Of a stretch of 64,000 nucleotides of DNA, positions 15,801-44,768 are shown piece after piece. Source of the stretch: Takakia lepidozioides (lineage: Eukaryota; Plantae; Bryophyta); contig CM060731.1 of NCBI GenBank assembly GCA_030704615.1, forward strand, positions 37,200,001 to 37,264,000, read 5' to 3'. The notes under the pieces are model-generated. The model did not search any database and had not been told where the DNA came from. It saw nothing but the letters and a program-made list of their open reading frames with translations. The first letter of the stretch is position 1. Each line of letters begins with the position of its first letter. Position numbers and translations under genes: made by a program.

Positions 15801-18800
15801 TTCATGCGTGGAAAATCCGTTTCCTCCAACTCTTTAGAGCAAATCCATCAGAATAAGCCTCCCAATCTATAGATTGTCTCACGAACCTCGGGAGTCAATG
15901 TCCCACGTACTGCAATGGACAAGATGTCTTACAATAGATTGTGGTAGTCATGAGACTTCAAACCATGGACCCCGTCTTCTTCGCTGAACTTCGTACAGAG
16001 GGATGACCCATAACCAGTTGGTGTTCGGACAGCACTTATGGTGGCTATCACTTTCTTGTATTCCTCCTTTGTTCATTGCCAAGGTACGTGCCTATACTTC
16101 CACCGTACAACACCCTTTGGGTCCACACCATTTTGTTCGGCCCATAGATGGCGCATGTGACCCTGCTCCTCAAGCTCATTTCTAACACTGAGAAAATCTC
16201 CTTTTGCAGCCACTCCCTTCTTTGCCGGCGTGCCATGAAGAACCCAAAAAAGGGACAAGCAAACATTCTTCTCAATATGCATGGGATCTAGAAGATGGCG
16301 AATCTTCAGGTCCTACATATATCCCCACCCACAAATACTTGCACAATTTTTTTTACGTGAAAGTGACAATGCAACGCATACCAAATGTGCAATATCACAT
16401 GCATGCATAGAGATATTGACGGTGTTTTTGTGGAATATGTACTGCCCAATATGACAACTCGTAGAAGATTGAAAATCGTTTCATGCCGGACACGTCCACT
16501 TCACCGTCCGTGCCCGCATGGGCCTCCTTCCATCGGTCCTCCCAAAAATTGCCCGGACGGTGTCATAGGGGGGGGGACATACTTCCTCTTTGTCATCTAT
16601 GTTCTATTGCATGGAGTACATGGCAAGGGTGGATGAGGAAGCCCCTTGGATGTGGAAGGAAGAGGAGGATGCACGAACCAAAGACATCGTTTTGCCCAAA
16701 ACATCGAAGAGGGTAAAATTGCCGACCTTGGTGATTGAGCAAGTGCATGACTTCATACTGAAGAACACCCCATCCATACATGAGTGGGAGACAAAATACA
16801 ATAATCTTGTTCAGCAACGAGAGGAGGAGACGCTTTCATGGAGGCGGAACCATCCAAGGCCGGTTACTAGACGCCCACGACGAGGAGCGGGCCGCAGGAA
16901 TGTTCCTTCACAAAATTTGCCCATGGAATTGCAGCCTCTAAGTTCATTCCAACAGTGGCTTCGGACTTCAGTTTATGATGCCGTTGCTCAAGGAGAGGTG
17001 GTTCAAATTTGGTGCAAGACATTGCAAGGGCCCCCTCCCAATTCGCAACCTCATACACGGCGGTTTGGGTTCACGGTCGTCATTTCCGCATTCGTGCTCT
17101 TGACATGAAGCGCAAAACAACCTTTGATTCTGGCTTGTGTGCCATATATTGGCAAAACTCCGTGTGGGGCAAGGGAGATACATGACTTGCTATGAGCAAA
17201 CTTGAGTACATTCGAGAGCTTGAGAGCATACTCCAACTTCAGTATACAAGGTACCGGCCTCTTCTCTTCAAGGGAAGGTGGTTCCAACCACATCTTGTAG
17301 GGCCCTCCGCAACACTAGTGCAAGATGATTGTGGTTTCATGCGCGTCAATGCAGATAGACTCAACCTTACTCATCGTCCCTCCGATGAGCCTTATTCACG
17401 GCCTTCAGACATGGAGCAAGTTTTCTTCTCCGATGATAAAACAAGAGAGGGGAATTGGAAGGTGGTCGTGCATGCTCAGCCAAGAGGAAGACGTATCTAT
17501 CATGGTCTCAGATCTCCATGGGGTGAGGCAATTGCGGTGGACGGAGAGACTGGTCATAATGATGCTGATGATGGAGGTTGGGTAGAGGGGGTAGAAGATG
17601 ACGATGACGCCCCGGAAAATGCATCCCAGACCCTATATGATGAAGCTCTAGAAGATACGGATGTTGGAGAAGGAGACGAAGACGCGGCCATTGACAACGA
17701 GGTGGAGGATGATTCGGAGGTGCCTTTTGAGGGCCGGGCCATTTATGATGATGACTCCGATGACCAAGAAGACTTGCAGCTTGATAAGGATGAAGAAGCT
17801 CCGGATGATGATGTTCAAGTTGATTAGACACAAAATCAAAGCTACATAACAATTCTCGCACCGAACTGTACCCATCCCTTCGATTGATTATACATGTACA
17901 TGCATATTATAGCTTATTTCTACGATTGATCAAATATGGCTGTGGCTGGTGGTCTTTCAAGAAAGAAGGCAGAGGCATTGAATATGTTGGAGCAACACAT
18001 ATAGATGTGGTATCAAGAGAATTATCAAAATGAATGTCACAATCTACAAGAAGGTCCACAATAACAAGCTAAATCATAAAGAAAAACAAACACCCTACCC
18101 CAGTACCATATGGAAAAAAAAAAAAAAAAAAAAAAAAACTAAGAACCCGCAAAGGCCCTAAACCTAAACCTAGAAAGCCCTGCCGTCGCTTCCTACGACC
18201 CCCTCTCGTCGCAAACTGCGATGCATTTTTTTATTAATTTATGGCGCTTATATTTATGACCAGCATAGTGTATCTACGTGGTTTTGTGGAGGGAAAGAAT
18301 GTGAATTAAATATGATGCAAGAGAGGCCAATATACAATTGGTCTACATGAACATCACTAATCGCTTCAGTCGTTAGTGTCATCCATTGATTGTACTTCGA
18401 CCGGGCCTGACGTGGTCAAGAATTTTCAAACCCCCAAAAAACATCTAGGAAGGACATATAGGGATCAGGCATCCACTCAGTTATGTTCTCGGTCATCACA
18501 TAGGAACAAAAAAAAGAAGTTGAAGACCAGCGGAAACGGCGACGGCAAGCCGTCGCAAACTGCGACCTATTTTTTTTTGTTTTGAAAGAATAGGGCAGCC
18601 CCTGTTTGCGACGTCCGGCCATCGCCAAGGCCTTTTGCCATTCATGCCACCATGCGACGGCCTGGCGTCGCAAATTAAGGGCTGCGATGAAAGAAAGGGC
18701 AAGAAAGGGCTGCCTTTTTCCGCTGGCGACGGCCGGCCGGCCGGCCATCACCGGAAAGGGTTGCCTTCTGCCCTTCGGGGGGAGACGCGTGGGCGTCGCA

Positions 18801-25549: not shown

Positions 25550-25778
25550 TTAATGTTGCTAATTTTAACCAACTTGCTATAAAAAATTTGATTTGCTAAT
25601 TAATACAAAGGATTTTGAAGGAAAAAAAAGGAGAATAATACCGTAGTATACCCCTAGGTTAGGCAAGAATAATGATTTTACCCCATATTCTATCAAAATC
25701 AGAAATTGTAGGAGGTTTGTGCCTAAATTCTCATATTTTACACCATGCAAGTGCCGAAAGTTTGGGAAATTAGGGTGT

Positions 25779-26214
25779 TGTCAAGTTAAAAAAGCACAGT
25801 GTGAAAACGACTAGAATAAAGCTAGTTATTTGTACTTAACACTTGGATTTAGGTCAAGTGTTAAGTCAGGTGTCAAGTTTAGTTTGACACCTGAACCGTC
25901 TTATCTTCACGAGAGCGGCAGTCGCGCAGCTCATCTCTCTCGAGTTGAGCCTGCGCGACCGAGCTCCTTCATGCGTTTAGATCTGAGTGTGCTTATGATG
26001 GGAGTGTAGGTTGTTGTGGGGTGGAGTCCCCATAGCTTGGGGTGCCCCTGGCTCGACTTCTATTTTTAAAGAGTGATAGCGATGGATTTCATATTTCTTG
26101 TGTTGAGAGTGTGTCTTTTAGCTTTCTTATCACTCGAGAGAGATGAAACTGTATCTAGTTTTCTAGTGCTAAGCTAGATGTGACGTTCTTGTTTTTAAGC
26201 ACTATTATAATATA
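25779..26214 (+). repeat. 5' LTR segment (A plus putative U5), lacking segment B
   Basis: 25779-26131 matches 36662-37039. A PBS-like site follows. Confidence 0.8.
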
Positions 26215-26217
26215 GCT

Positions 26218-26231
26218 TGGTTACGAGAGCC
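26218..26231 (+). other. PBS-like site TGGTTACGAGAGCC
   Basis: Imperfect similarity to the iMet PBS TGGTATCAGAGCC, just downstream of the 5' repeat. Confidence 0.4.
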
Positions 26232-26330
26232 TGCAGTTAGACTGGCTATGTGTGCCTAGTGGAGCATAACAGGAAGACGGGAAACACTCGAAGTGTCGCT
26301 GCAGCAGTTCAAAGCTAACAATATTCTCGT

Positions 26331-26557
26331 CTTCCTGGCAGGCACTGCAGCAGGCTGTCTGCCTTGTCCTGAAAGCGTGGGGGGCCTGTCCTCATCAACA
26401 GTTGCAGCATAGGAATGGCTTCTGCCGCTGCCATGGATTGTGCTTTTCCCACCTCGGCAGGACTGGAGGACCAGGCTTGACGTAGTAGGAACAAAGCCTC
26501 AAGTGCTGCTTCTTGTGCTCCTTCATTGCCAGCCTTTAGTGCACCCACCAGCTGCAC
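26331..26557 (-). pseudogene. CSI1: Captured fragment of a CELLULOSE SYNTHASE INTERACTIVE 1-like (ARM/C2) gene
   Basis: [61 protein letters not shown] matches the last ARM repeat before the C2 domain of CSI1/POM2 as I recall it. Confidence 0.85.
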
Positions 26558-26763
26558 GGAGCTGCTCTAGTTACGCACAAACCTGTTCGGCATCTTTGAT
26601 TTTGGACATGCCTGTATATTGCTCATTGTGTGGCTTCAGATTGAGTCCACCGTGACTTGCAAGCACTCTCCCATGAATGAGCCTGTCCAAGCTTTTATGC
26701 ACTTGGAGTTTCTCGCATGCATGTGTCAATGTGCAGCGGCGGTGAGAGAAGAAGGCACGAGCC

Positions 26764-27088
26764 ATGCCGGCAGGTCATGGATTGCGATCGCGCACCAGGG
26801 ATCTGTTCTCGCAGCCATTCAAGCAGAAGGGGTACATTCACTTGACCATGTATCTGAGAAACTACAGGATTGGAGATTATGTGGACATCAAGGTGAATGG
26901 CGCTGTGCACAAGGGCATGCCCCACAAGTTCTACCATGGCCGCACTGGTATCGTCTGGAATGTCACCAAGCGGGCTGTTGGTGTAGTTGTTAATAAGCAG
27001 GTTGGTCCCAGGATCATTCGGAAGCGCATCCATGTGCGCGTCGAGCATGTCCAGCCGTCCCACTGCCGTGAAGGAGTTTGTCCGCGCC
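26764..27088 (+). pseudogene. RPL21: Captured, intronless, 3'-truncated 60S ribosomal protein L21 (eL21) copy
   Basis: [16 protein letters not shown]...[39 protein letters not shown]. Homology stops after about 105 codons. Confidence 0.95.
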
Positions 27089-28394
27089 ACAACAGTGGCG
27101 CTTACTGCCGGTATTGTAGGTTTGTTTTGTTCCTCCTAAGTAGGGCATGAAAACACCGTGTTCTAAGGTTTCTCCTAGTGCATTGAAGCTACTTGGCAGG
27201 GTTGGCTTGTTCTGAGGAGGCTGGCTGCTGAGCCGCATTTTGTTGGTTTTCTGAGACCACTCCAAGCTCGCAGCTTATAGATATAAGCAGCACGCCTTCT
27301 GCTCCATGGGTAGATCTATGGTCGCCCGAAGTGTTTCAACATTCTATTGCCTATGGGATTGTAGGCAGAAATCCAAAAACCGAAAACAGAGATGAGGAGA
27401 AGCTCTGGATTCATGATGCAACTGGCAGGTGGATGTCACTGCAGAGGTGAGAAAAATACTGATGGCCAGTGGAAGGGAGCAGGTCACTGCTGCGTTGAGG
27501 GTTGCAAAAGGGTGTGCACCTTCATTGTAGATAAACGAGGCTCTTTGGACCCTTTAACGAGGCTTGGAGTTGGACGTTTTGAAGCTGGTTCCATGTCCAG
27601 CGCATGCTGTTGGAGCACCTAGTAGCCCATCCACAATTGCAGTGGGGGCTGAGAGCTGGTGCCTTCGAGGATTTGGTGGTTCGGAGTACGAGCTGCCTTC
27701 GTTGTTGTTGATGGTGCTGGAGAATCGCTTGAGACAAGGGCCTGCGGGTACAAGCCTTGCTGGTGTGAGAGCTGCTGCAGGCAGTAGAGTCGGGCAGTAA
27801 AGTCGGCTGTTGGTGAGACGAGATAGAAGCACTTTGGGTCTTCAATCCTGAGTGCCTCAGTACTTGAGCGTTGTCGGCACCAGCTTGATTTTGCATAGAC
27901 CTGGAGGGGAACGGCCTCGGGAACCCGTAGATAACCAGGGAACAGGGAACCAAGACAAGTATTGAAAAAGAAAAAGAAAAAGGAGTTTTCTTTGTATTTG
28001 TTCTGTCTTATTTTATTTTTTTAAAAGGAAAAGAAAAGAAAAATGTGTTATGTTTAAAGAGCCTGGTTGGTCATATCTTTGTCAAATGAGTTCCGTTTGA
28101 CTCAGTTTTTGAGGGGATAGCTGCAGAAATGGGATATCTACCTATCTAGACCTAGTTTTTGTTTTTGGGACTCTGCTAAAAATCTATGGAATTTTTAGAG
28201 TGTGAATGTGCCATGAAAGATCCACAATCCTGTTTCTAGAACCTGTTCTGGTCTACATGAGAGATAAATCTGGGGATGTACTCCTTGTATGGCTGGGGGA
28301 AATGAGGACGTAATTGAAGGGCAGGTCTCATCTCTTAGCCTGTGCACACAAGGGGACAAGATTTATGTTTCCCAAGGAACTCAGACTGATTTGA

Positions 28395-29000
28395 GTGGAG
28401 CAATTGGACGAGTTGATTGCATACTGGGAGTCAGGCATTAGCAATAGACAACAGACTGCTGTAGTTGGCGTTGAGGGCCTCAATATCGCTTTGGACAGAC
28501 AGAACTCTGTTGGAGCCAGCAGTTCTGCAGCTGTAAGTGAAATACCAAAGTGGTTGAAAGCTAGGCCTGGAACACAGCCAAAGACAGCCCCAGGGACCAA
28601 GGTGTTCAGCCACAAGGCTGTGGTGTACTGGAGCAGAGGAGCAGGAGCTACACAAGTTTGTGCAATCAGACAGCGTTGCAGCCGGACACGCTCTGCACAA
28701 GGCAACCACGAGCGGGGGTTCATTAGCGAGGACAAGTTTGTTCTGTTTGAAGGAGATGCAGTCATTCGCAATGAGGACACCCGCAACCGTCTCAAAGCTT
28801 TCGAGTTGAGAGACTATCAGACCCTACCTTTGTTTTCTTTAGTGTTCAGTGAGCGGGAGATAGCAGAGTGTTGCTTTGTCTCTACCTGGCAGAAAGAGGA
28901 GGAGGGTTGGTTAGAGCGAGCTACTGTAGCTTGGGACAAGGTTAGTGGCAGGTTTCTGGACATAGATATACCTCCTACACCTTACCATCATGCAGAGTGA
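28395..29000 (+). CDS. Unknown 201-aa ORF upstream of gag, inside the retrotransposon
   Basis: Open frame on the element's sense strand with protein-like composition. No motif recognised. Confidence 0.45.
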   Translation: MEQLDELIAYWESGISNRQQTAVVGVEGLNIALDRQNSVGASSSAAVSEIPKWLKARPGTQPKTAPGTKVFSHKAVVYWSRGAGATQVCAIRQRCSRTRSAQGNHERGFISEDKFVLFEGDAVIRNEDTRNRLKAFELRDYQTLPLFSLVFSEREIAECCFVSTWQKEEEGWLERATVAWDKVSGRFLDIDIPPTPYHHAE

Positions 29001-29556
29001 GGCACTTTGAGAGAAGTCTGGAAGTTGATAGCATAAATCAGGATTAGATCTTGTTTGGGCGGGCTTCTATTCTTCCCCTCCATCTCTGTACTATTTTCAT
29101 TACCTTGTACTCGTAGTTGCCAAAGCCTCTCTTGGTGGAGGCCAGTCAGTCCGGGGTTTTGGGCTGGGATATTCTGCAGGATCAGCATTGCAGCTGGATT
29201 TTGGTGTGGGGGTGTTGATGTTTTGATTTCTTGTGTTTGGATCCCCCCCAACACCTACATGCTTGACTGTGCGCCATGTTGGTTTTGTGTGGGCGCTTGC
29301 TTTCATAGGGATTAGGCCGGATTTGATCACCGGTCAATCCTAGAGTATGCTGTCGGTGGTGAAGCTGGAGTGATGACCAGCAAGACCACCAGTGTTTCTT
29401 CTATGGTGAGGCTGGGTTGATGACCAGCCAACCATAGGAGTTCTTGCGGTGGATGCAGGTGCAGGTGCCCTGAGCCATTGGGATATGACCCTTAAACTGC
29501 AACAGGTGCCCACCCGTGTCACTATTAGAATTAGTACTAGAGCCCTATAGTGTCAC

Positions 29557-31700
29557 GTGGGGGAGGTGCACATTGTGAGTGTCATCACGGAGTTACCCAA
29601 GGGTTTGGAGGGGAGTACGGCTACAGGCAGTAGCAGTGAGAGTGGGTTCACCAGACGAGGTGTTCGTTTCAGACCACCTTCACCTCCACCCTCAATTAGT
29701 GCAGAGTCAGACACAGACTCGGAGGCTTCATCAACAGGTGTGCAGTTTCATTCGCCATTGTTGTGGGACGACATGGAGGAGATGTATGGAGCTACCAAGG
29801 GGCCTCGTAGGTACTCTGGAGCTGTGGGCACAATCGAGTTGGATGACTTTATCCAGGAGTTCGACACTGGTGTGATTTGCAGTAGATGCACAATCCACAG
29901 CTATTCACCCCATTCATGGCGTGGAAGGGACTGTTCCAGCATTTGGAAGGCCCGCCTATGGACGATTACCACGAGTTCAGGCAAGGACATGAAGCAGAGA
30001 TTGAGGAGTGGAGGATTTATTGGTCACCTGACTACGTCTCCATTACTCGAGGCACGACGCGACCAGTAGCTGCATCAGTACCAATATCTCCCACTGCCAG
30101 CACTAGTAGTGGAACAAGTAGTGCCGGTACTTCTACAGGTGGTACTAGTTCAAAAGGTGCTACTACTCCTCCTGCCACGACTACAACACATGTGCCTAGA
30201 TTCAACCCGGTGGTGGAGTTCTTTCAGGAGTTGCAGAGGAACTACCAAGGTGTACGGACAGAGAAGCTGCGAAGTTTGCAAGACTTCCAGCGCAAACCCA
30301 GTGAGAGCTTGCGAGAGGCCTACACTCGTATGAGGCGCTTGATAAGTGTGACCCAAGGGGTTACTGAAGCTCAGGCAATCCAGCTCTGGTATGGAATTTT
30401 GGACAAGGAGCTCAGGAGAAGGGTGCGGGATGCAACCCTGTTACAAGCAGCCCAACCCACATTAGCAGATGTGTTTCTGCTGGCTGAGCGGATTGAGCTC
30501 AACATGGTGGAGGAGCGAGTTGTTACCATTGGGTTTGGCAAGGACATATCTGCACGAGGCGCAGCTGCCAGCCCACAGGCACAAGGGACTGCCCAACAGC
30601 GTGGTCAGGGGGGCAAGGTTTCCCAACCCAAGTTCCATGGAGCTTACAGGGGACCTCAGGTGCAGAGGCCCGTGGCATCTTTTGCAGGCCAACAGCAACC
30701 AGAGGTGATATGTTGGACATGTGGAGGACCCCATGTCAAGAGAGATTGCCCAGAGAGTGGCAAAAAGGCCGGCACAAACACAGCCTACACAGTTGCAGTG
30801 TGGGCATTGTGGCAAGTATGGGCATGGAGATGCCCAGTGTTATGACTTGCATCCTGAGTTGCGCCCTGGCCAGTTCCAATGGAACAATGGTGGCCGGGGG
30901 CGAGGTGGACCAGCCCAGAGAGGACGAGGTGGTCGGGCACGAGGTGCAGGCCAAGGGCAAGCTCAACATGGCCAAGGACGCGGAGGTCAGGGTGTTGACC
31001 AAGGCATGGCCAACCGGCTTCAGCAGCTAGAGCAGAGGCTCGCTGCCATGGCTACAGCTCAGGCGGTACCGGCTCCCAGGCGGGATGGTCCACCTCCTGT
31101 TCCTGAGGGAGGAGATATGGGAGGCATGGGATTCATGTGCGGAGCAGCACTACCACTAGAGCAGGTGGAGTCTGCTGCAGCCGTGACTCGAGGAACAGCA
31201 CGAGTTCCTGAGCCACGAGGTGTAGAGGTGGAGTTGGATCCACAACGTGGGGAGGCAAGCCGTCAGGCGAGGCTGCCTCAGTCATTCACCTTGGCGGAGA
31301 CAATGTCAACGCCATCCATGGCACCTAGTTCTCGCCCGACTGTTACCGAGGCGGAGGTTTCTATGCCATTGGGGAGAGCTACACGTGCAGCACTGACACC
31401 TACTGCCAAGATTAGTGCAGCCGGTGTGTTGTTGGGGGCAGCCACCTCTATGTGTCAAGCCCCACTGTTCTCGGCAACCATGATTGTGACGCCGGGGGTA
31501 AGACCAGCTGCAGTGTTCAGACTAGCAGCAATACTCTGTGAGAGTGGGGAGGTCACTTCATCTTCTGCGGAGTTACTGGAAGGTGTAGTGGCAGAGGGAT
31601 CCTCGGATTTGAGGGTCAAGACTGCCACGGCTGCGCCATGGCAAGCTGCAGCTGCCAGGTTGACGGAGCTGCCAGCTAGGCCAGCCTTTGAACGCGCATA
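29557..31700 (+). pseudogene. gag: gag with two CCHC zinc knuckles and an RGG/Q-rich region (frameshifted)
   Basis: FQRKPSESLREAYTRMRRL, CWTCGGPHVKRDC, CGHCGKYGHGDAQC. Confidence 0.85.
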
Positions 31701-32150
31701 GTGACACCTGCAGTTGTCTTGTTAGACAACCAGGATGGCATTTTCTCTTTGAGTGGACCGGCAGGCAAGAAGTACCGGCCACTGCGGGTCTTGTTGGACT
31801 CGGGAGCTCAGCCACTGATGTTGGGTAGAGTTGCTATTGCAGGTTTGGGCCTCATGGAGGCGGATATGGAGCCTTGTCCTTTCCAGATACAGACATCTCT
31901 GGGAGGATCAGAGCAGGCTCGGGGCATGACACGGCATCAGTTGGCCATTAGACTATAGCCGGATCATCCTATCGATGGCTCAGTAATGCGAGCCAAGGCC
32001 ATTGTGACAGACGCGGTCTCTTATGATGTCCTCGTTGGTGGGGCAGTGTTATACCCCATGGGCTTCACCCTGGACTTTTGGGAGGAGTCAGCATTCTACA
32101 GGCCTGGATGGCAGTCAGGGGATGGTCGTCATGCACAGCTCCCTGTGACA
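31701..32150 (+). pseudogene. Aspartic protease domain of pol
   Basis: VLLDSGAQPLML ... YDVLVGGAVL. Confidence 0.85.
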
Positions 32151-32510
32151 TTCATTGGGGGTATTGCGGCTGCCCAACGGGGCAAGATGCCAACACTAGC
32201 CGCCTTTACAGCTGCAGTTAGTTGGCCTGGAGAGTTGCTGGAAGGCAATGCCCATGCAGAGGATGTGCCACCTCCAGCATAGCAGGATGACATGCATGGT
32301 ATGGCGGAGTTGCCTGCCATGGTTGCTCACACTCCATTGTGGGGTACGAGCAAGGATTTGCAGCAGGTTACTGATCGACGGGTGCAACAAGCCTGGGTAG
32401 AGGCTTTTGTACCATCAGGAGAGGAGGAGAGTGCGGGTATTGCACCAGGACCACCTCACTTGTCACCATTGGATACCACACCTATTGTGTGGCAGTATCC
32501 GGATGAAGGC

Positions 32511-33450
32511 ATTTGCCTTCTGGACTTGTTTGGCGGGATCAGCACCGGATTGGCTACTGTGCTACAGGCAGGTGTGCGGGTAAGGCGTTACCTGTATGTG
32601 GAGAGGGATGAGACTGCACGACGCGTCTCACTGCGCCATGTTGCTCAGTTGGTACAGCAGTACCCTGCTTTGTTACCAGTGTCTGCAGTTCGTGGATACC
32701 AACAAGCCTTGCCAGCAGACATTTTTTGCTGGGGCGCCGGATTTGGAGCAGGTTGGCTCCATTGATCTGGTAGTGGCAGGTTGGCCCTGCCAAGGGTATT
32801 CATCAGCCAGGCATGACAATGGATTGCGAGACTCAAGGACGGGTCTGTTTTGGGAGATGGTGCGGATTTTGCGCCACTTGCAGCTTCATCAAGCTGTAAT
32901 GCCAGCATACATCTTGGAGAATGTGCCACTGATGGGCGATTCTCGGGCCAGGATGATGGCCAGTGTGCATCAAGTCCGGTCGTGGCTTGGGTTAGCAGTG
33001 CTGCTGGATGCAGCTGCAGTGGGATCACGGGCTCATCGTCCACGGCTATGGTGGACTAACTTGATGCCACCCGCACTGCTCAAGCGTGCATTTGATGGGG
33101 TGCAGCGGCCAACACACCTCATATTGGACAGCATTTTGGACACATGGAGGCAGTCTCAACGTGTGAGACACGATGACCGTTCGCCTTTGGCAGTGGTCAA
33201 CAGGGTGGGTCAACCACGAGCAGCATTACCTACACTACTCAGCTTCCCAGGATCCCATGCTTTTCGGGATGGTGGACCTGGCCTCCTGTGGGATGATCAG
33301 TTGCAACAGTTAGTGGAGCCTAATGCTGACGAGCGAGAGCGGGCTATGGGATTTTCCACTAGGACCACGGCGGTGCCTTCTCTTTCTGAGGCATCACGTC
33401 GTCAGGTGTTGGGGCAAGCAATGGATCTCAATTGCTTGACCTGGATGGCT
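32511..33450 (+). pseudogene. C5 DNA cytosine methyltransferase domain (DNMT3-like) embedded in pol; one frameshift near 32725
   Basis: Motif I LDLFGGISTG, II YVERD, IV DLVVAGWPCQG (PC at 32785-32790), VI ILENV (32917), VIII AHRPRLWWTN (33037), IX ERERAMGF, X RRQVLGQAM. The order is canonical I-X. Confidence 0.95.
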
Positions 33451-33849
33451 GAGCAACGTAGAGTGCGGAGTGCACTTCCCTTGACGGTCTCTCTGCCTAC
33501 CGAGATGGTACAGGCAGCGAGTGGGGGCGAGCCGGTGAGGACCACGGGGTGTGACATCCATGGCACACGTGGGAGGTGCTCGAGGTTCAGAGGGAGTTGG
33601 CAGCCAAGGCAGCTGTGATGGATGAGGTTGGGGATTCTTCTCGGGATGAGGAGGTTCTCAATGATGAGATGATCAGGCAGGATGAGGCCTTGTCATCGAC
33701 TGAGCAGGAAGGGAGTACTGCTCGAGAGGTTGCAGCATAGCAACCACGGGACGCGTCCTCTACCTCTAAGCCCACTAGACTTAAGGTTGCAGTTACGGAG
33801 GACAATTGGGAGCCTGACATTGGACCCATTGTCACCGGAGGAGAGAGAC

Positions 33850-35066
33850 GACGTATACGACGGTTCCTGAGGGCTTACAAGAATTGCTTTGCCTTCAGTT
33901 TGAAGGACTTGGGAGCACTGAAGGGTCAAGAGATCCGTATTGAGTTGGGCACTGACACGCCAATCTTTCGGAGACCCTATAGATACAGTGACATGGAGAG
34001 GTCTTTGATTCAGATGAGGACTCAAGATCTCTGGGAGGCAGGTTTGGTGGAGCTCTCTGGTGGAGAGTATGCTTCAGCCACAGTGATGCCAGATAAGAAG
34101 AATGTCTATGGCAATTGGACGGAGAGACGTATGTGTGGTGATTACCGGCCTGTAAATCGTCAGACCAAGTCCGATAGGTATGCCATGCCGACACTAGAGG
34201 AGATCTTTGATGCCATTGGGCATTCCAAGGTCTTTAGCACGTTGGATTTACGATCCGGATATCACCAGTTGCCGATCAAGGAGGCGGATAAGCAAAAGAC
34301 GGCATTCTGGGGGATCAATGAGCACGGGAAGGATTGCCTATGCCAGTGGCGGTTCTTACCATTTGGGCTTAAAAACGCTCCCGCTGAGTTTCAAAGAGTC
34401 ATGGACAGGATTCTAGCAGGGGTGGAGTTGCTCGGTGCTACATAGATGACATCATCATCTTTAGTGCTACGGTGGAGGAGCATGAGAGACACCTTCAGGG
34501 GGTATTTGAGCGCTTGAGGGCGCACGGATTGAAGTTACAGCAGACTAAGGTAGAGTCCATTGCACAGGTTCCACGCCCCACGGATGTGAGCCGAGTTCGA
34601 GCTTTCATGGGGTTAGCAAACTATAACAGACGGTTTGTTAAGGGATTTAGTGCCATTGCAAAGGCTCTAACCAATCTGACCAAGGTGGACCAGGAATGGC
34701 AGTGGGAAGATGAGCAAGAACAGGTTTTTCAAGAGCTCAAGGCGAGGTTGACCTCGGCGCCATCTTGAGAGACGACCTATCAGGGGGCGTCCTTTTCAAC
34801 TGCATACAGATTGGAGCATGCTGGGGCTTGGAGCGGTGCTCACACAGGTGGATGATGAGGGAAGAGAGTCGTAGTGCTTATGCTAGCGCTCGAACAATGC
34901 TGCAGAGTCTAAATATAGCTCATATGAGGGAGAATGCTTAGCTGCAGTGTGGGCCGTGGCACACTTCAGGTGCTATCTATATGGCAATCTCTTCACCCTT
35001 GTCACGGATCACCAACCACTCAAGTGGTTGATGGAGTCAGACAAGCTTACGGGGAAGCTTGCACGG
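33850..35066 (+). pseudogene. pol: Reverse transcriptase and RNase H of the DNMT-bearing Gypsy element
   Basis: RMCGDYRPVN, LDLRSGYHQL, LPFGLKNAP, YIDD (~34439), FMGLANY, LHTDWS..GLGAVL, YSSYEGECLA, VTDHQPL. Internal deletion near 34540. Confidence 0.95.
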
Positions 35067-36120
35067 TGAGGAGTTGGGGCATTTTGGGGTGCGACGCACT
35101 CATAGTCTACTGCAGGGGCAGTATTGGTGGCGTGGTTATGCACACAGAGGTGCAACAATTTGTGGCTAGGTGCATGGTGTGTGACAGGGTGCGTGCTTCA
35201 TTCAACGCCCCTACTCCACAATTGCACCCTCTTCTGATCATGAGATTGGGCTACAGGTGGGAGTCTTGACTTCGCAGGGCCGTTGCCACTGACCATGCGC
35301 CACAACAAGTACATGTTGGTGATGGTGGAGCACTTCTCCAAGTGGATTGAATTGGTTCCATTGCCTGATAAGGCTAGTGAGGGAGCTGCGTATGCATTCT
35401 TGGATTGTGTGCTTAGCCGATTCGGTGCTCCAGCTGAGGTACTCACGGACCAAGGGAGAGAGTTCTTGGGGGAGTTTCAGGCTTTGTGCGACAAGGCCTT
35501 GATAGACCACCGCACCACTTCTCGGGATCATCCTGAGGCCGATGGCTTGGCAGAGAGATTTGTTCAGACAATAAAGAGGGGTTTGTGCAAGTATGGCTTG
35601 CAGAAGGGACACCTAGGAGATTGGGACTTCAGTTACCCTGGTTAGCCATGGGCTACAGGTTCAGCAAGCAAGCATCACTTGCCTCCTTCTCACCATACTT
35701 TCTTCTCTTTGGCCGAGAGCCGGATTTTCCTACATCCATTCGCAGAGAAGCTGCTACAGTTCTTACCTTGACGATCCGGACGTGTGCGCACGTGCATGTG
35801 AGCAACGTGCAGAGTTGTTCAAGAGAGTCAATGCCCATGGCTTTCGAGAACCTTGCCATTGCACAACACCGTGATACGTTGAGGTATGCTACCATACGTG
35901 GGGGGGCTATCGTCCCGGGGTTCGGAGATTCAACCCTGGTGACTATGTCTATCTGCAGCAAATGCTCCTACGACCTGGATGTGACTGCAAGACGTGTTAT
36001 TTTGAGGGTTCGAGAGGTCTTGCCTCAGGCGTCTTGGTCTGGAGGGTCGGGATGGCATAACTTGAAGGACCATCTGCGTAATTGTGCGCCATGTCACCTT
36101 CCGAATGTCGATGGCAGGAT
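35067..36120 (+). pseudogene. DDE integrase with C-terminal region
   Basis: YWW...CMVC, DFAGPLP, VEHFSKW, TDQGREF, HPEADGLAER, SPYFLLFGR. Confidence 0.92.
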
Positions 36121-36153
36121 TGACAAAGGCAGTGGTATCTGCAGGTTTTGAGG

Positions 36154-36288
36154 TGCATGTTGTGTGGGTCTGCTAAAAGGGGCAGCCACCATGTTGGGTG
36201 TGTGATCATGCTCTAGAGGTTGGCATATGGGATGCTTGACTCCCCTTCTTGAGATGGTTCGGATGGGGATTGGTTATGTCCACATTGC
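36154..36288 (+). pseudogene. PHD finger at the integrase C-terminus
   Basis: After correcting four 1-nt indels: CMLCGSAKGAATMLVCDxCSRGWHMGCLTPLLEMVxDGDWLCPHC, a C4HC3 pattern with the conserved W. Confidence 0.88.
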
Positions 36289-36570
36289 ATTGGATAGTGG
36301 GAGTGGATACAACCATGGAAGGCTAACAAAAAACGCAAGAGCCCAGCTACTAGGAGACCTTGAACACACGAGGTCCTGGCTCAAGTTCACAGATTGCAAG
36401 ACGGCGACTAACGATGGGGCTACTCTTGTACCCGGCCTCTTGGTCTATAGAGTTTGAGTGTGCAATAGCAGGGCATGTGATAGAGGACTTAGTACGGATG
36501 TGTGTGTGTGGTATACATCTTGTAGCTATCTGGAGGTAGAGGGGGGACTACCCACAGCTAGGGGGGCGAT

Positions 36571-37127
36571 TGTGCAGACTACTTTATTGTGCATATATGT
36601 GTGGTGTGGTTTGGACAGCGATTGTAGTTGTGTGTAGCGTATATATATGCGCATGACAGCTTGTCAAGTTAAATAAGCACAGTGTGAAAACGACTTGTTG
36701 TAGCATAAAGCTAGTTATTTGTAGGCTTAAACTTGTAACTTTGGTTTTTTGTAGTGTCAAGTGTTAATGTTTGTGGGTGTCAAGTTTAGTTTGACACCTG
36801 AACCGTCTTATCTTCACGAGAGCGGCAGTCGCGCAGCTCATCTCTCTCGAGTTGAGCCTGCGCGACCGAGCTCCTTCATGCGTTTAGATCTGAGTGTGCT
36901 TATGATGGGAGTGTAGGTGTGTTTTTGTGGGGTGGAGTTCCCATAGCTGTGGTGCCCTGGCTCGACTTCTATTTTTAAAGAGTGATAGCGATGGATTTCA
37001 TATTTCTTGTGTTGAGAGTGTGTTTTTAGCTTTCTTATCGATTGTGGCAGACTACTTTATTGTGCATATATGTGTGGTGTGGTTTGGACAGCGATGTAGA
37101 TGTGTAGCGATATGTATGCGCACGACA
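36571..37127 (+). repeat. 3' terminal repeat block B1 (36571-36658), A2 (36662-37039), B2 (37043-37127)
   Basis: B1 and B2 are near-identical (TGTG(G)CAGACTACTTT...GACA). A2 matches 25779-26131. The block is preceded by the PPT-like AGGGGGGCGAT. Confidence 0.9.
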
Positions 37128-37309
37128 GCGTTAAGTTGTAAGTTGAACTGTTGTAAGTTACAACAGATGAATGATTTGCAACGGTTTTTTAATAGCAATG
37201 CCTGAAACTTTCAAATTAGTCATGAAGAATGCCAACGCTTTTCACAAATTTCCTACGGATCTGCCTAAAATTCTGGATACATCAAAATAATTATTAGGGA
37301 TCTTTTTTA

Positions 37310-40300
37310 GTATGTGATCATCAGCTTTGACGGCAGAACGCCGGGCTTGATGAAATTATCTTCCAATCTGCAGCGGCAATGAGAAGGAGGGTGAGGGAAG
37401 ATAGAGTAAGACTTGAAGTAAGTATATGTCCATTTCCAAGCATAGGGAGAAGCTCTATTGAAAGCAACAGTAGGGGTATGGGCAGCAGACAGTCTTATTA
37501 TGACTTTCAGAAGCAAAGGACTGCGATCAAAGTGGTGACAATGACGTAAGGACTCCCTGAGCGTGTTGTGGTTTTGTTTTTTGCGGTGTGTAGCGCTGCC
37601 GGCACTGGGGCAGCAGGGGCTTGGTAAGGGTTGTATAAGCTGTGCTGCAAGAACCAAGCGCCCACCAAGCCAAAGTTGATGTCAGTAGAGAAGTAGCGGA
37701 GTGGGTTGCAGGGAGGTGGGAGAGACAGCGATGGGCATCATAGGATACAGACTGATGGGTCACTGCTAAAGCCAGATTTGGAGTGTAAAAAATCTGGTAA
37801 CTGATGAGACAGTAAGAATCAGGAGCGAGATAACATGTAGATGGAACATACATGCCTGGTTGTGGTTGCGGGCAGATTAAATCATGTGATAGATGCAGCA
37901 CAATCATGTAGGGCCTAGCCAACTCGTGAGTCGAGGGAAATGGAGTGGTATGATGTCGGTGGGTTATATGTGCAGTAACAGGAGCACCATTCGTAACGAG
38001 CAGGTGAACGATCCATGCCAGACATTGCATGCAGGGGGCAAAAGTAAGACGAGTACCAGCAGACCGACATATGTAATTCGAGCAGGGGCCGGTTGATGAA
38101 GTGGCGGAGAAACAGGGTTCTGGTAAGTGTGCTGACCTGCGGCGAGGTGGAGAGCCCGGGTGATCAGCATGTGAGCTACACCAGCGGGGAGGGAGGGAAC
38201 AGTTACACTGGGGATTTCATGAGGGCAGTGCAATCATATCATAAGTCCCGTTGGAAGCTAGAAAGCAGAGAACGTCTAGTAGAGTGGGTAGGAGGTTACC
38301 TGGGAGTGAATTAGACGACGGTAGAAGGGAAGTGGTGGGGGGTCTGCTGATCTTGTGAAGCCGCCATAGGATTGGGGACTTTGGCAAACAGGCGGGCTGG
38401 TTCGGTGTAGCGCCTGATAAATGAATGCAGACCCTGTCATTTCTACATCTGCTCAGGGCTGGCAGTTGGAAATGGTGATTGACAGCAATATAGGGCTGGA
38501 CGTGAGCAAGCCTGTGCATCCATTGCTGTGGCCGCCTGCTTTGTGGGGCAGATCCTGGGGGATGCTTGCAGGGGTGGCCGAGCAGGGTTTTCTGTTGAGC
38601 ATGTCGGAACCACACATTCGTGAGGCCCACTGAGCTCGACTTTTGTAGCCCAGGCAGCAGTGGGCATCCCTGCAGATCAGCATGACTTGCCGTGGGGGTA
38701 GCTGCACAGTTTACACCAAACAATTTGTGGAAAGAATGGCTATCCAGAGCTATAGGCGTTACAGATGAGGCATTATGCTTACTAAGTTGTAGAGTAGAAT
38801 TACTGTAGTTAGCTAGCATAAGCGTGGTGACCGACAATCGATCAGCAGAAATCAGATGGTGTAGGGTAAGGTACTGCCTCATAATCTCCAGCAATTTGTG
38901 CAATGATGCGGTGGGTAATTGGTTAGTAGCCTCTGGGTAGCTGCCACAACAGGATAGATAGTAATGTTGGCGGAGAGGCCTTGGTGACTCAACTGTATTA
39001 AGCGTATTGTTGACAATCTTGTGGGGCTCCGTACTCAAACCATCTGTTAAGTCATTATAACTGAGGTATTGAGGGAGAGGGTGACCATGGAGGAGAGTAG
39101 CTTGCTTGGAAGCCCCAAGCCCACTGGGGTCAGACCGTGTCGAGAGTTTTGAGGCTGGGTAGAGTGCCAAAAAAGCTTATCCCACAGCTCCTGACCAGGG
39201 GTAGCCACGTAGTGTCTCCGAACTCGGGCCCTTGAAAGGTGTCTACCGTTGAGGAGCTCGGGGGGCAGGTCTCGTTGTGACTCCCAGCCAGGGAGTTTCA
39301 GCGGGGTACTCATATTCATCAAATGTCTCCGAATGTATGCAATCTCCGGTCGCAATGGCCACTGAGTAAGAGAAATATAATTGACTTGTCAGGCAAAATT
39401 CAGAATCCCAGCCGGTGCCCAAACAACAGTTCAAAGTGACAGCCAGGGTTTTCTTCGTGTAAGTCTGCCCATATCCCTTTCACCCGGAGCATTCTTCAGC
39501 AAGAGTGCACACAGTTGGGCACGTTCCTACTAATGCTGCAACGAGAATAGTAGTGACTATCCTGATGGGTTCTTTCCTTAAACCAGCAGCCTTGGCCTTG
39601 AATCGGAGGTATTGATGGAGAGAGGGACCATGTGGGAGAATCGCTCTCTGGGAAGCCCCAGAGCCAAGTAGGGCCATCATAAAATGAAACTTGTTGGATT
39701 GGGTGTGTTGCAAACAAGCCTTATCCCCCATCACCTGCTCATCGGTAAATATAAAAGTAGCTTCCCAAAACAGGGGCCCCTGGTAGTTATCTGTCTTCGA
39801 GGAGCTCTTGGGAGAGGGCTTGTTGAGGAGCTCAGCAGAGGTGGCTACTGCCGTGTGCGCGTAGACAATAAATTTCGCCTGGTTGCAAGGCCACATTGGT
39901 AGGGTTGATGCAACAGATGTCACCAGAGGCTCCAATGCTGGTGTCTTGGCTGTGAGTGATCCAGCTTGGGGGAGATTGTAGACAGAGGTACTGCAAAGTC
40001 GGTGTGAAGTAGCACTCCAAAGCGGGTGGCATGATTTTCTCCATAGGGGAAGGGTTACAGCAGAGCAGAACAACATTGTTTGCCGTGGGGGTAATCACAA
40101 ACTCCAGCAAATTGCTCGGTGATGTGGTGGGCACTCGGTCAGTAGCCTCTGGACAACGGCCAACCGCTGATAGGAAGTCAAGTTGGCTGAGAGGCCCAAG
40201 TGCCCCGTTTGCATTAAGAGTATGATTGCCAAACATGTGGCGCTCTGCACCCAAACCAACTGCTTGAGTAATATAATTGAGGTCTTGAGGGAGAGGGTGA

Positions 40301-41805
40301 CCACAGGGGAGAGTTGCTCGCATGGCTGTCCCAAAGCTGCATGAGGCCAGGCCGCGTTGAGGATCTTTAGGCTGGTGGGAATGCCAAAAAGGCTTCTCCC
40401 ACAGCCCCTGGCCAGCGGTGGATATCCAGGTAGTGTCACAAAAATCGGGCCTTTGCTGAGTATCTACCTTTAAAGAGCGCGGGGGACTGGTCTCGTTGTG
40501 ACTCCCAGCCGTGGGGGTTTCAGCGGTGTACTCGTATACAACAAGTGTCTTCAAATGTGTGTCATCTCCTGTCACTGAAGCCAATGAGTAAGGGGTAGAT
40601 AATTTACTTGTCAGGCAAAATTCGGAGTCACAATCATTGCCAATACTGCAGGCCATTGAATCAGCCAGGGTTGCCCTCGTGTAAGTCTGCCCACAACCAC
40701 TATGCCAGGAGCCTCCCTCGGAAAATGTGCGCACATTTAAACCCAACCAGCAAAGTGTAGGTTTTGGGCACGAACCTACCTAAGCTGCATCAAGAGTAGT
40801 AGTGACAGTCCTGCTGGACTCTTCCCTTAAACCAGCATCCCTGGCTGTGAATCGGAGGTATTGATGGGGAGAGTGACCATGAGGGAGATTTGCTCTCAGG
40901 AAAGCCCTAGAGCCAAATGTGGCCATCATGAAATGAAAATCGTTGGGATGGGTGTTGAGCCAAAAAGACTTATCCCCCAGCATCTGTTTAGCGGTAAAAA
41001 TCCGAGTAGCATTCCAAAACAGGGATCCCTGGCAGGTATCAGTCTTTGAGGAAGCCTCAGGATAGGGCACATTGAGGATCCCAGTTGTATCTGTAAATGT
41101 CGCCTGGTGCAGTGACACATTGGTAAGGTTGATAAAGCGGTTGTCACCCGGGGGCTGCAACTCTGGTGTCTTGGCCGTGAGTGACCCAGGTGGGGGGGGA
41201 AATGCAGACAGAGGGACTGCCGAGTCAGTGAAGCGTAACACTCCAAAGTCGGTGGCGGGCTGTTCTCCGTTGGGGACAGAATACAACAAAGAAGGCATAG
41301 CGGGTATGCCTGCGTTGTTACTAAAGAGACACCTTCCAGTTCAACGTTCATAAGCAAGAGTACATTGGACGACGATCCATAAGGGGTATTTATCTGGAGT
41401 GGAATTGACGGGTGCCTCGCTTCTGAGACCTTAGGACTGTGTGTCGGACTGTCGGTACTCTTACAACGCTGCTCGTTTAGAAGCGTTGTCATGTTCCCTG
41501 GTGGTATTGCCCTTAAATCATTCAAAGTGGGATAGTTGGGGCTTGAATCACTCCATATCTTCCTCAGTGACCATTGTGCAATTTTGGGATGGTGTAGATA
41601 CGACTTCATTGGTGGACTTCTTGTTTTTGACAAGTGGGCAGATGCTGCAGATGCTGAGAAGGTCCCTGTAGGGTCTGAGTAAAGGCTTCTGTTCGGGCGT
41701 ATGACGACTTGCGTAGAACCCCGAGGTGGGAAGCTTCATGTCCATCCAGGGTCTGTGAGTAGAGAAGCAGCCCTGGTCATTTGGTAGGCATTCAGTAATC
41801 TGGTC
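37310..41805 (-). mobile_element. Unclassified degenerate element with a long broken minus-strand ORF containing a nested tandem duplication
   Basis: A chain of 170-317 aa minus-strand ORFs. Units ~38880-40075 and ~40095-41300 align, and each contains two related sub-modules. Confidence 0.5.
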
Positions 41806-41807
41806 CC

Positions 41808-44768
41808 TAACAGGTCACTGTCTACACTGATCACAAAAACCTCGAATATTTTATGAGTGCTCGGGTTTTGAATCGACGTCAAGCTAGATGGGGTATGTCA
41901 CTAGCAAGGTTTAATTTTGTTATTACCTATCGCCCCGGACATCTTCAAGGGAAACCCGATGCTCTTTCTCGACGATCGTATCTTGCGCCGAAAAAAATGA
42001 ATGCAGCTTTCGACCAACAGAAAAATCCATCATCTTGAAACCAGCAAATCTCCAATTGAATATGCTATCCATGTCCACCTATGATGATGCATAGATCATA
42101 AAGGAGATTCAGGAAGCACTGAAGAACGACCAATTTGCTACGACACTATGAAGTCAACTAAATCGACCTCGAGACAACCCACATTTTACAAACGACTTCG
42201 AATTCAAAGATGGCTTACTTTATTTCAAGAGACTTCTCTATGTACCTCTAGGACCTACACGACTTCGAATTCTTCAAACATGTCGTGATCTTCCGGCTGT
42301 AGGACATTTCGGCTTCAACAAAACAATGGAATTGATATCCAGGGACTATTGGTGGCCACAGATGTGGAAACTCGTGAAAGAATTTATAAAATCTTGCGAC
42401 ACGTGCGCTAGAGCGAAGGGACCACGACATCGACCTTATGGCCTTCTTCAACCATTACGCATTTCCAAGGGTCCATGGTCGTCCGTGTCTATGGACTTTA
42501 TTACGGACCTTCCAATTTCCAAGACCACCGATTCAATCTTTGTTATTATAGATCGTTTTACGAAGATGACACATTTCATTCCATGTAATAAGACGGCTAC
42601 CGGCGAGGAAACTGCAAGACTCTTCCTCAATAATATCTACCACATTCATGGACTCCCGAATGACATTGTATCTGATCGAGGACCACCGTTCATATCAAAT
42701 TTCTGAAAGAGATTATTTCACATATTGGATACTAAGATCAACCTCTCTACAGCTAATCATCCACAGACTGATGGTCAAACCGAACGTGTAAACAAGATTT
42801 TGGAACAGTATCTTCGCTGTACGATAAATTATCACCAAGATAATTGGACGGACTTTCTGTCATTGGCTGAGTTTGTCTACAACAACACTATACATTCTTC
42901 GATCAAGCAAACTCCATTTTTCTCCAATTATGGTCATCATCCTCGAGCAAACCCTTTCCACATGAAGACTGTTGGAAGCCATGCTGCAAAAAACTTTGCT
43001 ACTCATCTTGCTACGATTCACAAGGAGCTTACATTCCACCTCGCAGAAGCTAAAAAACAATACAAGGAATATACAGATCAACATCATCAACTCCAATCCC
43101 AGTTCAAGGTCGGAGATCGTGTGTGGCTTCTTCGACGGGACATACAAACCTCACGTCCATCAAGGAAGTTGGATTATCAACGCCTGGGACCATTCAAAAT
43201 TATTCGACAAATAAATCCGGTCAGTTTTCGGCTTGAACTCCCACAAAGTATGCGCATCCATCCAGTCTTTCATATTTCATTATTGGAGTTGTATCATCCA
43301 TCGAATATTCCAGGGAGAGTCTCCGTACCACCTCCACCAATCGAAGTCAATCAGGAAATTGAGTATGAAGTCGACGAAGTCCTAGACTCTCGCATCAAGT
43401 ATAAACGTCTTGAGTATTTCGTACATTTGAAAGGCTACGACATCAGCGAACGAATGTGAGAACCTTCATCTAACCTTGCCAATGCATCTGACAAAGTCCA
43501 AGAGTTTCATCAACGATATCCAGCTAAGCCCCGAGCTACACGTCAATAAGACGTCACAACGATGATGTCAGTCAAGTTAGCTTCAAGGTGAAGATTCCAC
43601 ATTCAATGTACCTGATACACGCTAAGGAGGGAGGAGCATCACACATCAGTATATATAGCTACACTTCCAGTACTCTTGCATCTTGTATTGGTAGCATGGA
43701 GTCACAGACACCAGATACATTAGAGTTGTCGCTTACCCAACTACCAGATCAGCCGTTCCGACCTCTCACGACCTTCAACATCACGCCGATGCTCTCGAGA
43801 CGATGGGCCATCAATGCGACGCTTACTTCCTCGTCTGGACCCCGTACGATGGCAAGTGGAGCCTACTCGAAGTCTGATAATGCTATTGGAGGTTGAGGCT
43901 TCAGATCCAGATGGCAACGAAATCATGTTTGAAAGCAACTTCGAAAATCAGAATGCTCAAATCATTGCGTGGTCCCAAGTTCAAGGTGTTAGACACTATC
44001 GATGGTTGCAGGGACCTATAAATCATTTGAGTCAAGAACGAAGAGCCGAATACTTGACAAAGTACCATTCGCCGGATTTTGGATTTTCTCCAACTCTAAG
44101 CAAGTCCAAGATTTTACCGCTCCTCGAGGAACTCGGTGCTAGAGGAGGGGGTGATGTCATGGACATAGCCCAGAGGAACTTACCAAGAGTAAATATCAGA
44201 AGTTACCAAATTACCGGAAGTTTTTTATTATTTACCGTAATTTACCGTGATCTACCATGATTTATCATTAGTTACCAAGTTACCGGGAGTTTACCAAATT
44301 ACCAATACTAACTTGAGAAACTGCTCAGGAAGCTTCCTTTGGAGGAAACTTCTCCATCAAGATACCTCCTTTGTTTAAGGAAGCTTCTCCATCAAGAAAC
44401 CTTTGTTTAATCGTGGAAACTTCTCCATCATGAAACCTCTATAGGGGAAGCTTCTTAGGGAACTTCTTAGTAGCCAATATATATAGGAGGCGAGACTGGA
44501 CACTCTTCAGTCTCGCCAACACAAGTTCAAGCTACTCTTGTTCCTAGTCCCAGTACTCCAGTCTTCCAGTACTCTAGTCCAGTTTCTAGTATTTGGTACC
44601 CCAGTCCAGTTTCCAGCATTCCAGTATTCACATTATCTTGTACTCTTGATCATATTGGTTTATGTTTACCCACCATGCATTCGGCCACGCTGACCTTGAC
44701 TTCTTGTCTAGTCTTGTACCTCTAGTCTGATCTCTTGTTTGTGTTCAGTCACGTTCTCGTCCTTGACA
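41808..44768 (+). mobile_element. 5'-truncated chromovirus copy 2 (RNase H end, integrase, chromodomain, 3' LTR 44155-44768)
   Basis: Starts at [14 protein letters not shown]. Colinear and near-identical to 9830-12808. LTR TGTCAT...TTGACA. Confidence 0.95.

Follow-up and report, generated by a model that had tools for sequence, protein, structure and literature searches.

A 64-kb stretch of Takakia lepidozioides DNA, hereafter the window, contains a dead member of a Ty3/Gypsy-type retrotransposon family that encodes a DNMT3-like cytosine methyltransferase (DNMT). The element spans positions 25779-37127 of the forward strand, on which all of its features lie, and runs from a TGTCA start to a GACA end with its repeats in the order A-coding-B-A-B. 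Its anatomy is firm as to domain order, repeat order, TG..CA ends, target-site duplication (TSD), polypurine tract (PPT) and self-complementary primer-binding site (PBS). We hold with moderate confidence to the complete model, in which an ORF1 encoding Gag, protease (PR) and DNMT is likely read through into reverse transcriptase, RNase H, integrase and a PHD finger (RT-RH-IN-PHD), the packaged DNMT would methylate the cDNA, and insertion would proceed from a circle.

Anatomy of the element

The succession of Gag, weak protease, RVT_1, RNase H and rve recovered by Pfam is that of Ty3/Gypsy elements. ORF1 comprises a broken Gag region with zinc knuckles at 29773-31695 (PF03732 E=0.0015; tblastn of Marchantia ORF1), an aspartic protease at 31701-32258 with LDSGA at 31794-31808 (a weak match, E=0.036; PF13650 E=2e-4 in relative L046) and the methyltransferase at 32511-33453. 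ORF2, also broken, comprises reverse transcriptase and RNase H at 33801-35066 (Pfam) and a DDE integrase followed by a C-terminal PHD finger at 35068-36294 (rve E=3e-13). The PHD finger was placed by alignment to L046, Pfam having recovered none on the broken window piece.

Repeat A1 (25779-26131), which begins with TGTCA and forms the left end, matches A2 (36662-37039) at 343 of 350 aligned bases. Repeat B1 (36568-36658), ending in GACA, is matched at 84 of 87 aligned bases by B2 (37040-37127), which follows A2 without a spacer and forms the right end with the same GACA. A PBS-like segment that is not of the tRNA type lies directly 3' of A1 at 26132-26146, and a PPT-like G run lies directly 5' of B1 at 36560-36567. 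Flank comparison identified a 4-bp TSD at 25775-25778 and 37128-37131, the two copies agreeing in three of four bases. This duplication bounds the whole element, and the methyltransferase domain has none of its own.

The features of Ty3/Gypsy elements (Metaviridae) found here are the order Gag-PR-RT-RH-IN, a DDE integrase, TG..CA ends and a TSD within 4-6 bp; two whole identical LTRs, one per end, are lacking. The original prediction of a Gypsy retrotransposon was thus right in its domain order and has to be amended for its ends, which form A-coding-B-A-B instead of an ordinary LTR layout. Split direct repeats of the DIRS/PAT kind are present, together with the integrase domains rve and H2C2. 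Membership in DIRS/PAT was rejected on the 4-bp TSD and on the lack of any tyrosine recombinase match in the window pieces or in intact L046. The family is an integrase retroelement and not of the tyrosine-recombinase type, though its repeats are DIRS-like. Troyka elements, described in PMC12440569 with CG..CG ends, a 3-bp TSD and a distribution restricted to animals, were also rejected, the window element having TG..CA ends and a 4-bp TSD.

Compared with intact relatives, the window copy is interrupted at about a dozen places by indels, deletions and stops, in agreement with the original view of a copy broken by indels. In Logan contigs of the same species the whole coding region is covered by tens of thousands of pieces that are 80-99% alike, and 64,695 contigs of one sequencing run match the element family, which is high-copy in its host. 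Several of the breaks are private to the window copy, since the Logan contigs differ from it at those places; they may reflect decay or assembly error, and the data fit both. In one run, guessed to be RNA, 27 of 30 bins were covered, although assembled contigs cannot show expression.

The leader measures 3.6 kb in the window copy against 1.1-2.6 kb in relatives and is not common to the 73 related loci found in metagenome contigs. It contains an intronless fragment of ribosomal protein L21 at 26746-27147 (PF01157 E=9.5e-44), which looks like a captured host mRNA, and a 201-codon open frame at 28395-29000 (+) without a Pfam match.

The methyltransferase domain

Six-frame reading and motif mapping placed the C5-methyltransferase motifs at 32520-33426, in canonical order, intronless and with the catalytic Cys and ENV present. 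Motif I (LDLFGG, 32520-32537) and motif II (LYVERD, 32592-32609) share one frame. A single frameshift near 32731-32738 separates them from a second frame holding motif IV (DLVVAGWPCQ, 32764-32793), motif VI (ILENV, 32911-32925), motif VIII (AHRPRLWWTNL, 33031-33063), motif IX (ERERAMGF, 33331-33354) and motif X (QVLGQAMD, 33403-33426). Pfam matched PF00145 in the window over 32740-33453 with E=5.6e-13. The original prediction of sense-strand motifs I-X between protease and reverse transcriptase, in canonical order and uninterrupted by introns, is borne out by this mapping.

When a profile of the relatives was searched against the PDB, DNMT3A/B/C came out on top (DNMT3A E=6.7e-26, 94 bits), with DRM at 1e-10 to 1e-13 (DRM2 1.4e-10, 44 bits) and then M.HaeIII and M.HhaI at 1e-7 (M.HhaI 34 bits). 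Two phage enzymes scored 77 and 67 bits against 94 for DNMT3A; they align across the full domain length at 25-30%, and two of the three Atlas clusters are viral. The donor of the domain may have been a host or a phage. No relative of the element itself was found among the viral contigs searched. A fold search was made with an AlphaFold2 model (pLDDT 93) of the L005 domain, which is naturally open in this relative and 67% identical to the C-terminal part of the window domain. The model best matched DNMT3A/B (TM 0.73, Z 29.7), the next non-DNMT3 entry reaching Z 25.6 and M.HhaI 23.9. By profile and by predicted fold, the domain is nearer DNMT3 than DRM, DNMT2 or bacterial enzymes, and the initial DNMT3-like assignment is upheld by both searches.

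In alignment-based counts of 71 sequences with the DNMT before the RT, PCQ of motif IV was present in 62 and ENV in 58; among 121 sequences with the domain after RNase H, 47 have ECQ in place of PCQ. The CpG value is 0.50 in the element against 0.97-0.99 in nearby DNMT-less Gypsy copies. As a trace of self-methylation this depletion is not specific, because a host exon is lower still (0.37).

Reading frames and the conserved stop

An in-frame stop at 33738-33740, about 100 codons 3' of motif X, parts the DNMT from the RT. Of the 54 loci possessing both anchors, 46 have it at this position; of the other eight, six have no stop within the scanned interval and two are ambiguous, while four of the eight keep the stop out of register when judged by eye. 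CAR follows the stop in 44 of the 54 loci and the full CAR-YYA in six, including the window, where the stop and its context read TAG CAA CCA (33738-33746). As background, the full hexamer follows only 0.4% of all TAGs. UAG CAR YYA is the readthrough consensus of tobamoviruses (TMV type), as given in PMC3542737; the exact motif occurs in the window and five other loci, and in this family it would balance Gag-PR-DNMT against RT-IN. The arrangement recurs in intact relatives: five Marchantia ORF1 proteins of 1278-1281 aa terminate at the same point, 125 residues after the same motif, and L046 consists of an open ORF1 (1369 codons), TAG CAG TTA and an open ORF2 (1047 codons). A more distant relative, L067 (2-4432), has DNMT, TAG GGG and an in-frame RT-IN; its stop keeps the position but has another context. 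In P0056 and P0286, also more distant, there is no stop and the DNMT lies in the Pol frame.

The placement of the DNMT inside pol, as first proposed, is accurate in that the domain sits between protease and RT. The domain nevertheless closes a Gag-PR-DNMT frame ahead of the stop, and the expectation of one continuous PR-DNMT-RT frame fails in the 46 loci where the stop precedes the RT.

These sequence contexts make readthrough at the conserved stop likely, and the DNMT would be as abundant as Gag. It is unlikely that the stop truly terminates translation and that RT-integrase depends on reinitiation or on a message of its own, whether spliced or internally initiated. The largest sampled family, which is Sphagnum-like, would suit such a scheme, as it has TAG/TAA CAA CCC ATG in place of the full CAR-YYA, with a Met three codons beyond the stop, and L040 and L049 also have early Mets in ORF2. 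Against it, the stop never departs from the frame of ORF2, CAR comes next in 44 of 54 loci, and the window and L046 offer no Met before the RT core, their first Met of ORF2 being residue 85 and residue 117, the latter inside the RT.

Ends, priming and insertion

The order A-coding-B-A-B recurs in L043/L045, L048, L053, L063 and L066. A 4-bp TSD is perfect in 5 of 11 ends and matches at three of four bases in another 5, the window included, with L043 and L045 representing one insertion; the one that does not fit is L066, whose left end is degraded. A 5-bp TSD was tried and fitted more poorly. At the B1/A2 boundary of the window (36654-36666) lies an intact att-like palindrome, TGACA and TGTCA around a 3-nt spacer. 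Relatives have a 2-nt spacer, and the CA-NN-TG palindrome was found at this boundary in 12 loci, which represent five or more families and include one with the chlorophyte-type domain order; L061, of that order, carries the same palindrome.

A predicted self-primer segment in A, near the inferred transcription start (25931-25945), is a perfect 15-nt complement of the PBS-like segment at 26132-26146 (RNA fold z=-4.65), and 2000 random element 32-mers reached at most 9 nt. Of 20 loci, 8 have a pairing of PBS and A that beats 99 of 100 shuffles, and in the other 12 the pairing is not significant. Its sequence differs among three families, both sides altering in step. There are no tRNA genes in the window. 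At A2/B2 the end of A, as set by the PBS, directly abuts the start of B, as set by the PPT, and TATA-like boxes in some copies put the transcription start in the middle of A.

From these features a cycle can be proposed. The RNA would start inside A1 and end in A2, and its 5' end would pair with the PBS and prime the minus strand, as in Tf1. The plus strand would begin at the PPT; the working LTR would therefore be B+A and the linear cDNA BA-coding-BA. Joining the blunt ends of this cDNA would yield the seamless A2/B2 junction. The integrase would then cut the CA-NN-TG palindrome within one LTR and insert with a 4-bp duplication, giving A-coding-B-A-B with TG..CA ends, and a 2-nt palindrome spacer would leave ends resembling 3'-processed retroviral DNA. 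Circles with one LTR could give rise to the copies of relatives that have a single B. This A-coding-B form was seen at 8 of 19 right ends, one of them a short partial match (L009, L012, L017, L020, L029, L036 and L062 have it), and three such copies with both ends keep the 4-bp TSD. They fit either 1-LTR-circle integrants or B-B recombinants.

Insertion by opening an LTR circle in the middle of the LTR is, from the arrangement of the ends, likely. If the circle has two equal att sites, A-B-A-coding-B is also expected; this mirror product was found at none of 19 left ends, though it could be masked if short-read assembly collapsed the 340-bp A. Its absence would be accounted for if the split repeats arose in the manner of PAT/DIRS, with an RNA running from A1 to the end of B2, the B-A junction templating end joining and the integrase resolving the product, so that no blunt 2-LTR circle would form. 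The repeat order is indeed the DIRS type described in PMC5890265. We give this route only a small chance: the start of B1 falls exactly at the PPT and the end of A1 exactly at the self-priming PBS, the very points that meet at A2/B2, and TATA-like boxes mid-A in some copies, the lack of a tyrosine recombinase and the presence of a 4-bp TSD also speak against it.

Opening of a circle by a DDE enzyme has parallels. Elements of the IS3/IS30 type integrate from circles, the enzyme cutting abutted ends. Foamy virus integrase cleaves a palindrome at 2-LTR circle junctions (PMC1180852); there the palindrome lies at the joined termini, whereas the window family has it within the LTR, about 90-115 bp away from the end set by the PPT. 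The Tf1/Sushi and plant Tcn1 chromoviruses resemble the window element in having no tRNA PBS and predicted self-priming (PMC6317226), complementarity being the evidence here. They differ in having ordinary LTRs and a chromodomain, against a PHD finger, DNMT and permuted repeats in the window lineage; the ORF2 of intact L046 ends in a PHD finger with no Chromo match in Pfam.

Distribution, selection and descent

A first protein search returned 95 matches among 3161 candidates, including 18 from Marchantia, two each from Calypogeia and Sphagnum and one from Haematococcus, the best being from Calypogeia at 72%. One further match bears a gene identifier that we take to be of Spirogloea. A profile search gave 149 matches among 7982, adding Scenedesmus, Monoraphidium, Hariotina and a Chrzof1 model. 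At 50% identity, 626 clusters scored below 1e-30, the best 150 representatives all ranking above E=1.9e-90. Most of the 73 metagenome loci belong to one family matching a Sphagnum fallax protein and several are duplicates, so the counts of loci overstate their independence. One family member, P0031, is labelled as bacterial on a 2.4-kb contig and is probably a mis-binned plant contig. The domain is thus not confined to the window copy, as the original prediction had allowed it might be, and its relatives extend over Marchantia, Calypogeia, Sphagnum and chlorophytes. This range into chlorophytes goes beyond the original prediction, as do the PHD finger, the self-priming and the split repeats. 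That this one copy had captured a host gene was rejected on the breadth of relatives in proteins, metagenome loci and contigs of the species.

Two layouts occur, one with the DNMT before the RT and one of RT-RH-DNMT-IN (101 proteins). The latter followed by PHD is seen in L060, L061, L065, P0340, P0342, P0304 and P0091, all named hosts being chlorophytes, and its members form their own branch with support of 0.99 in the DNMT tree and 0.60 in the RT tree. A PHD finger stands 3' of the integrase throughout the lineage. For 54 elements, comprising all 17 of the DNMT-before-RT layout and 37 of 96 of the RT-RH-DNMT-IN layout, unrooted, family-internal trees of DNMT and RT agree with a Spearman coefficient of 0.66 and 23 of 51 splits shared. 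Because of this agreement, the DNMT domain descends with the element.

The domain is under purifying selection in relatives. Between L040 and L046 its dN/dS is 0.124 at a dS of 0.25, and it is 0.11-0.13 to L049; the RT of these three gives 0.04-0.05. The window DNMT compared with the three closest families has pN 0.18-0.23 with pS saturated. Two dead copies of the Sphagnum-like family show a dN/dS of 0.91, as expected after insertion. With a dN/dS near 0.12 and a frame shared with Gag-PR in relatives, the domain is neither out of frame nor neutrally evolving, the outcomes that could have undone the original reading.

Possible roles of the methyltransferase

The DNMT is likely made and packaged at the level of Gag and would mark the new cDNA or circle before insertion. 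As originally suggested, the enzyme may be released from the polyprotein. Methylation would probably shield the cDNA or make the new copy resemble host chromatin. The most likely substrate is the cDNA or circle, judging from the Gag-side position, the conservation and the activity of related domains: those of SymbioDIRS-Dnmt3 performed de novo CG methylation in yeast, as reported in PMC5890265. Dosage at the Gag level is not needed everywhere, since P0056 and P0286 are without the stop and about 100 others have the DNMT between RNase H and integrase.

Two other roles have to be weighed. The integrase-PHD fusion, as the reader, could direct the DNMT, as the writer, to the target site or to the chromatin beside it, either while the element inserts or afterwards. 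The PHD finger after the integrase is lineage-wide, 101 proteins have the DNMT directly 5' of the integrase, and the readthrough product would contain both DNMT and integrase-PHD. In the land-plant clade, however, the DNMT sits on the Gag side of the stop, for which reason we favour a role in the particle and judge action at the target site improbable. Slightly less probable again is a conserved role other than marking DNA for the element, such as RNA methylation, nucleic-acid binding in priming or circle formation, or self-restraint sparing the host. These alternatives are raised in PMC5890265, where the domain of KnitGypsy-Dnmt3 from Klebsormidium gave no methylation in yeast in an assay that the authors judged inconclusive, and the ECQ variant of after-RH sequences would agree with them. 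The catalytic Cys, the motif VI Glu and the SAM motif are nonetheless kept, the fold is predicted to be that of DNMT3 and not DNMT2, and the related SymbioDIRS-Dnmt3 domains do methylate CG.

Relation to known DNMT-bearing elements

The closest known system is KnitGypsy-Dnmt3 of Klebsormidium nitens (de Mendoza et al. 2018, PMC5890265). According to that description, both are Gypsy-type elements with an intronless, non-permuted DNMT3-type domain under purifying selection, and both combine Gypsy domains with a DIRS-like repeat order. The DNMT of KnitGypsy-Dnmt3 lies within the Pol frame, whereas in the window clade it ends ORF1 before the conserved stop, and the hosts are a charophyte and a land plant, respectively. 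KnitGypsy-Dnmt3 was described as an acquisition of the K. nitens lineage, in contrast to the chlorophytes, liverworts and mosses spanned by the relatives of the window element. The window element probably works like KnitGypsy-Dnmt3 and belongs to the same lineage, a likeness drawn from the description, with no named K. nitens sequence among the matches. SymbioDIRS-Dnmt3 (PMC5890265) shares the A-coding-B-A-B repeats and a DNMT3 domain but has a tyrosine recombinase and a dinoflagellate host, against a DDE integrase and a land plant here.

The available text of PMC5890265 makes no mention of a TSD, an internal att palindrome, self-priming, readthrough, a PHD finger, Marchantia or chlorophytes. 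The portions consulted of a 2025 survey (PMC12344493) cite only the KnitGypsy-Dnmt3 report for such elements, and those of PMC11982613, PMC10952607 and PMC9516144 do not mention element-borne DNMTs. The original remark that no description from a land plant was known still stands after a literature search that found no report of a DNMT-bearing retrotransposon from land plants or chlorophytes, with subscription papers, Repbase and supplementary figures outside its scope.

Neighbouring sequence

At about 55413-61500 (-) lies a host MutS gene with relatives of the cyanobacterial type, whose Marchantia homologue also has PF00929 (exonuclease). One of its exons is 73% like Marchantia, 71% like Riccia, 69% like Diphasiastrum and 81-86% like further proteins. 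These values place the host among seedless land plants other than Marchantia, in agreement with the land plant proposed at the outset, and a moss is probable. Two partial chromovirus copies at 9835-12806 and 41823-44766 (+) are 90% identical, carry SH3_Tf2-1 and Chromo and show no CpG depletion (0.97-0.99). A 1.2-kb tandem duplicate at 38879-41294 (72% identity) has long minus-strand open frames without a Pfam match. A DUF4216 match (E=1.1e-5) at 16569-17827 (+) is presumably the remnant of a CACTA-type transposon.

Conclusions

Since 2018 it has been a puzzle why a transposon should carry the class of enzyme that silences it, and the known carriers are awkward to study. Because Marchantia, a genetic model, has open Gag-PR-DNMT frames, such as those annotated as Mp5g06330 and Mp4g09160, and the family is abundant in mosses, the activity, substrate and sequence context of the enzyme become testable. 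The anatomy of the ends suggests that an integrase retroelement here inserts from a circle, a route generally considered closed to LTR elements.

Tentatively, and at somewhat less than even confidence, we propose an old branch of integrase retrotransposons that extends across the green lineage, with self-primed reverse transcription, insertion from a circle opened inside the LTR and a packaged, pre-methylating DNMT3, the dose of which would be set by leaky termination in land plants. If this is true, LTR finders would miss such elements, which in Marchantia would be mis-annotated as host genes, and the capture of DNMT3 would predate the chlorophyte-streptophyte split and not be specific to Klebsormidium. 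Mobile de novo methyltransferases could add to the methylomes of bryophytes and inflate their annotated DNMT gene counts.
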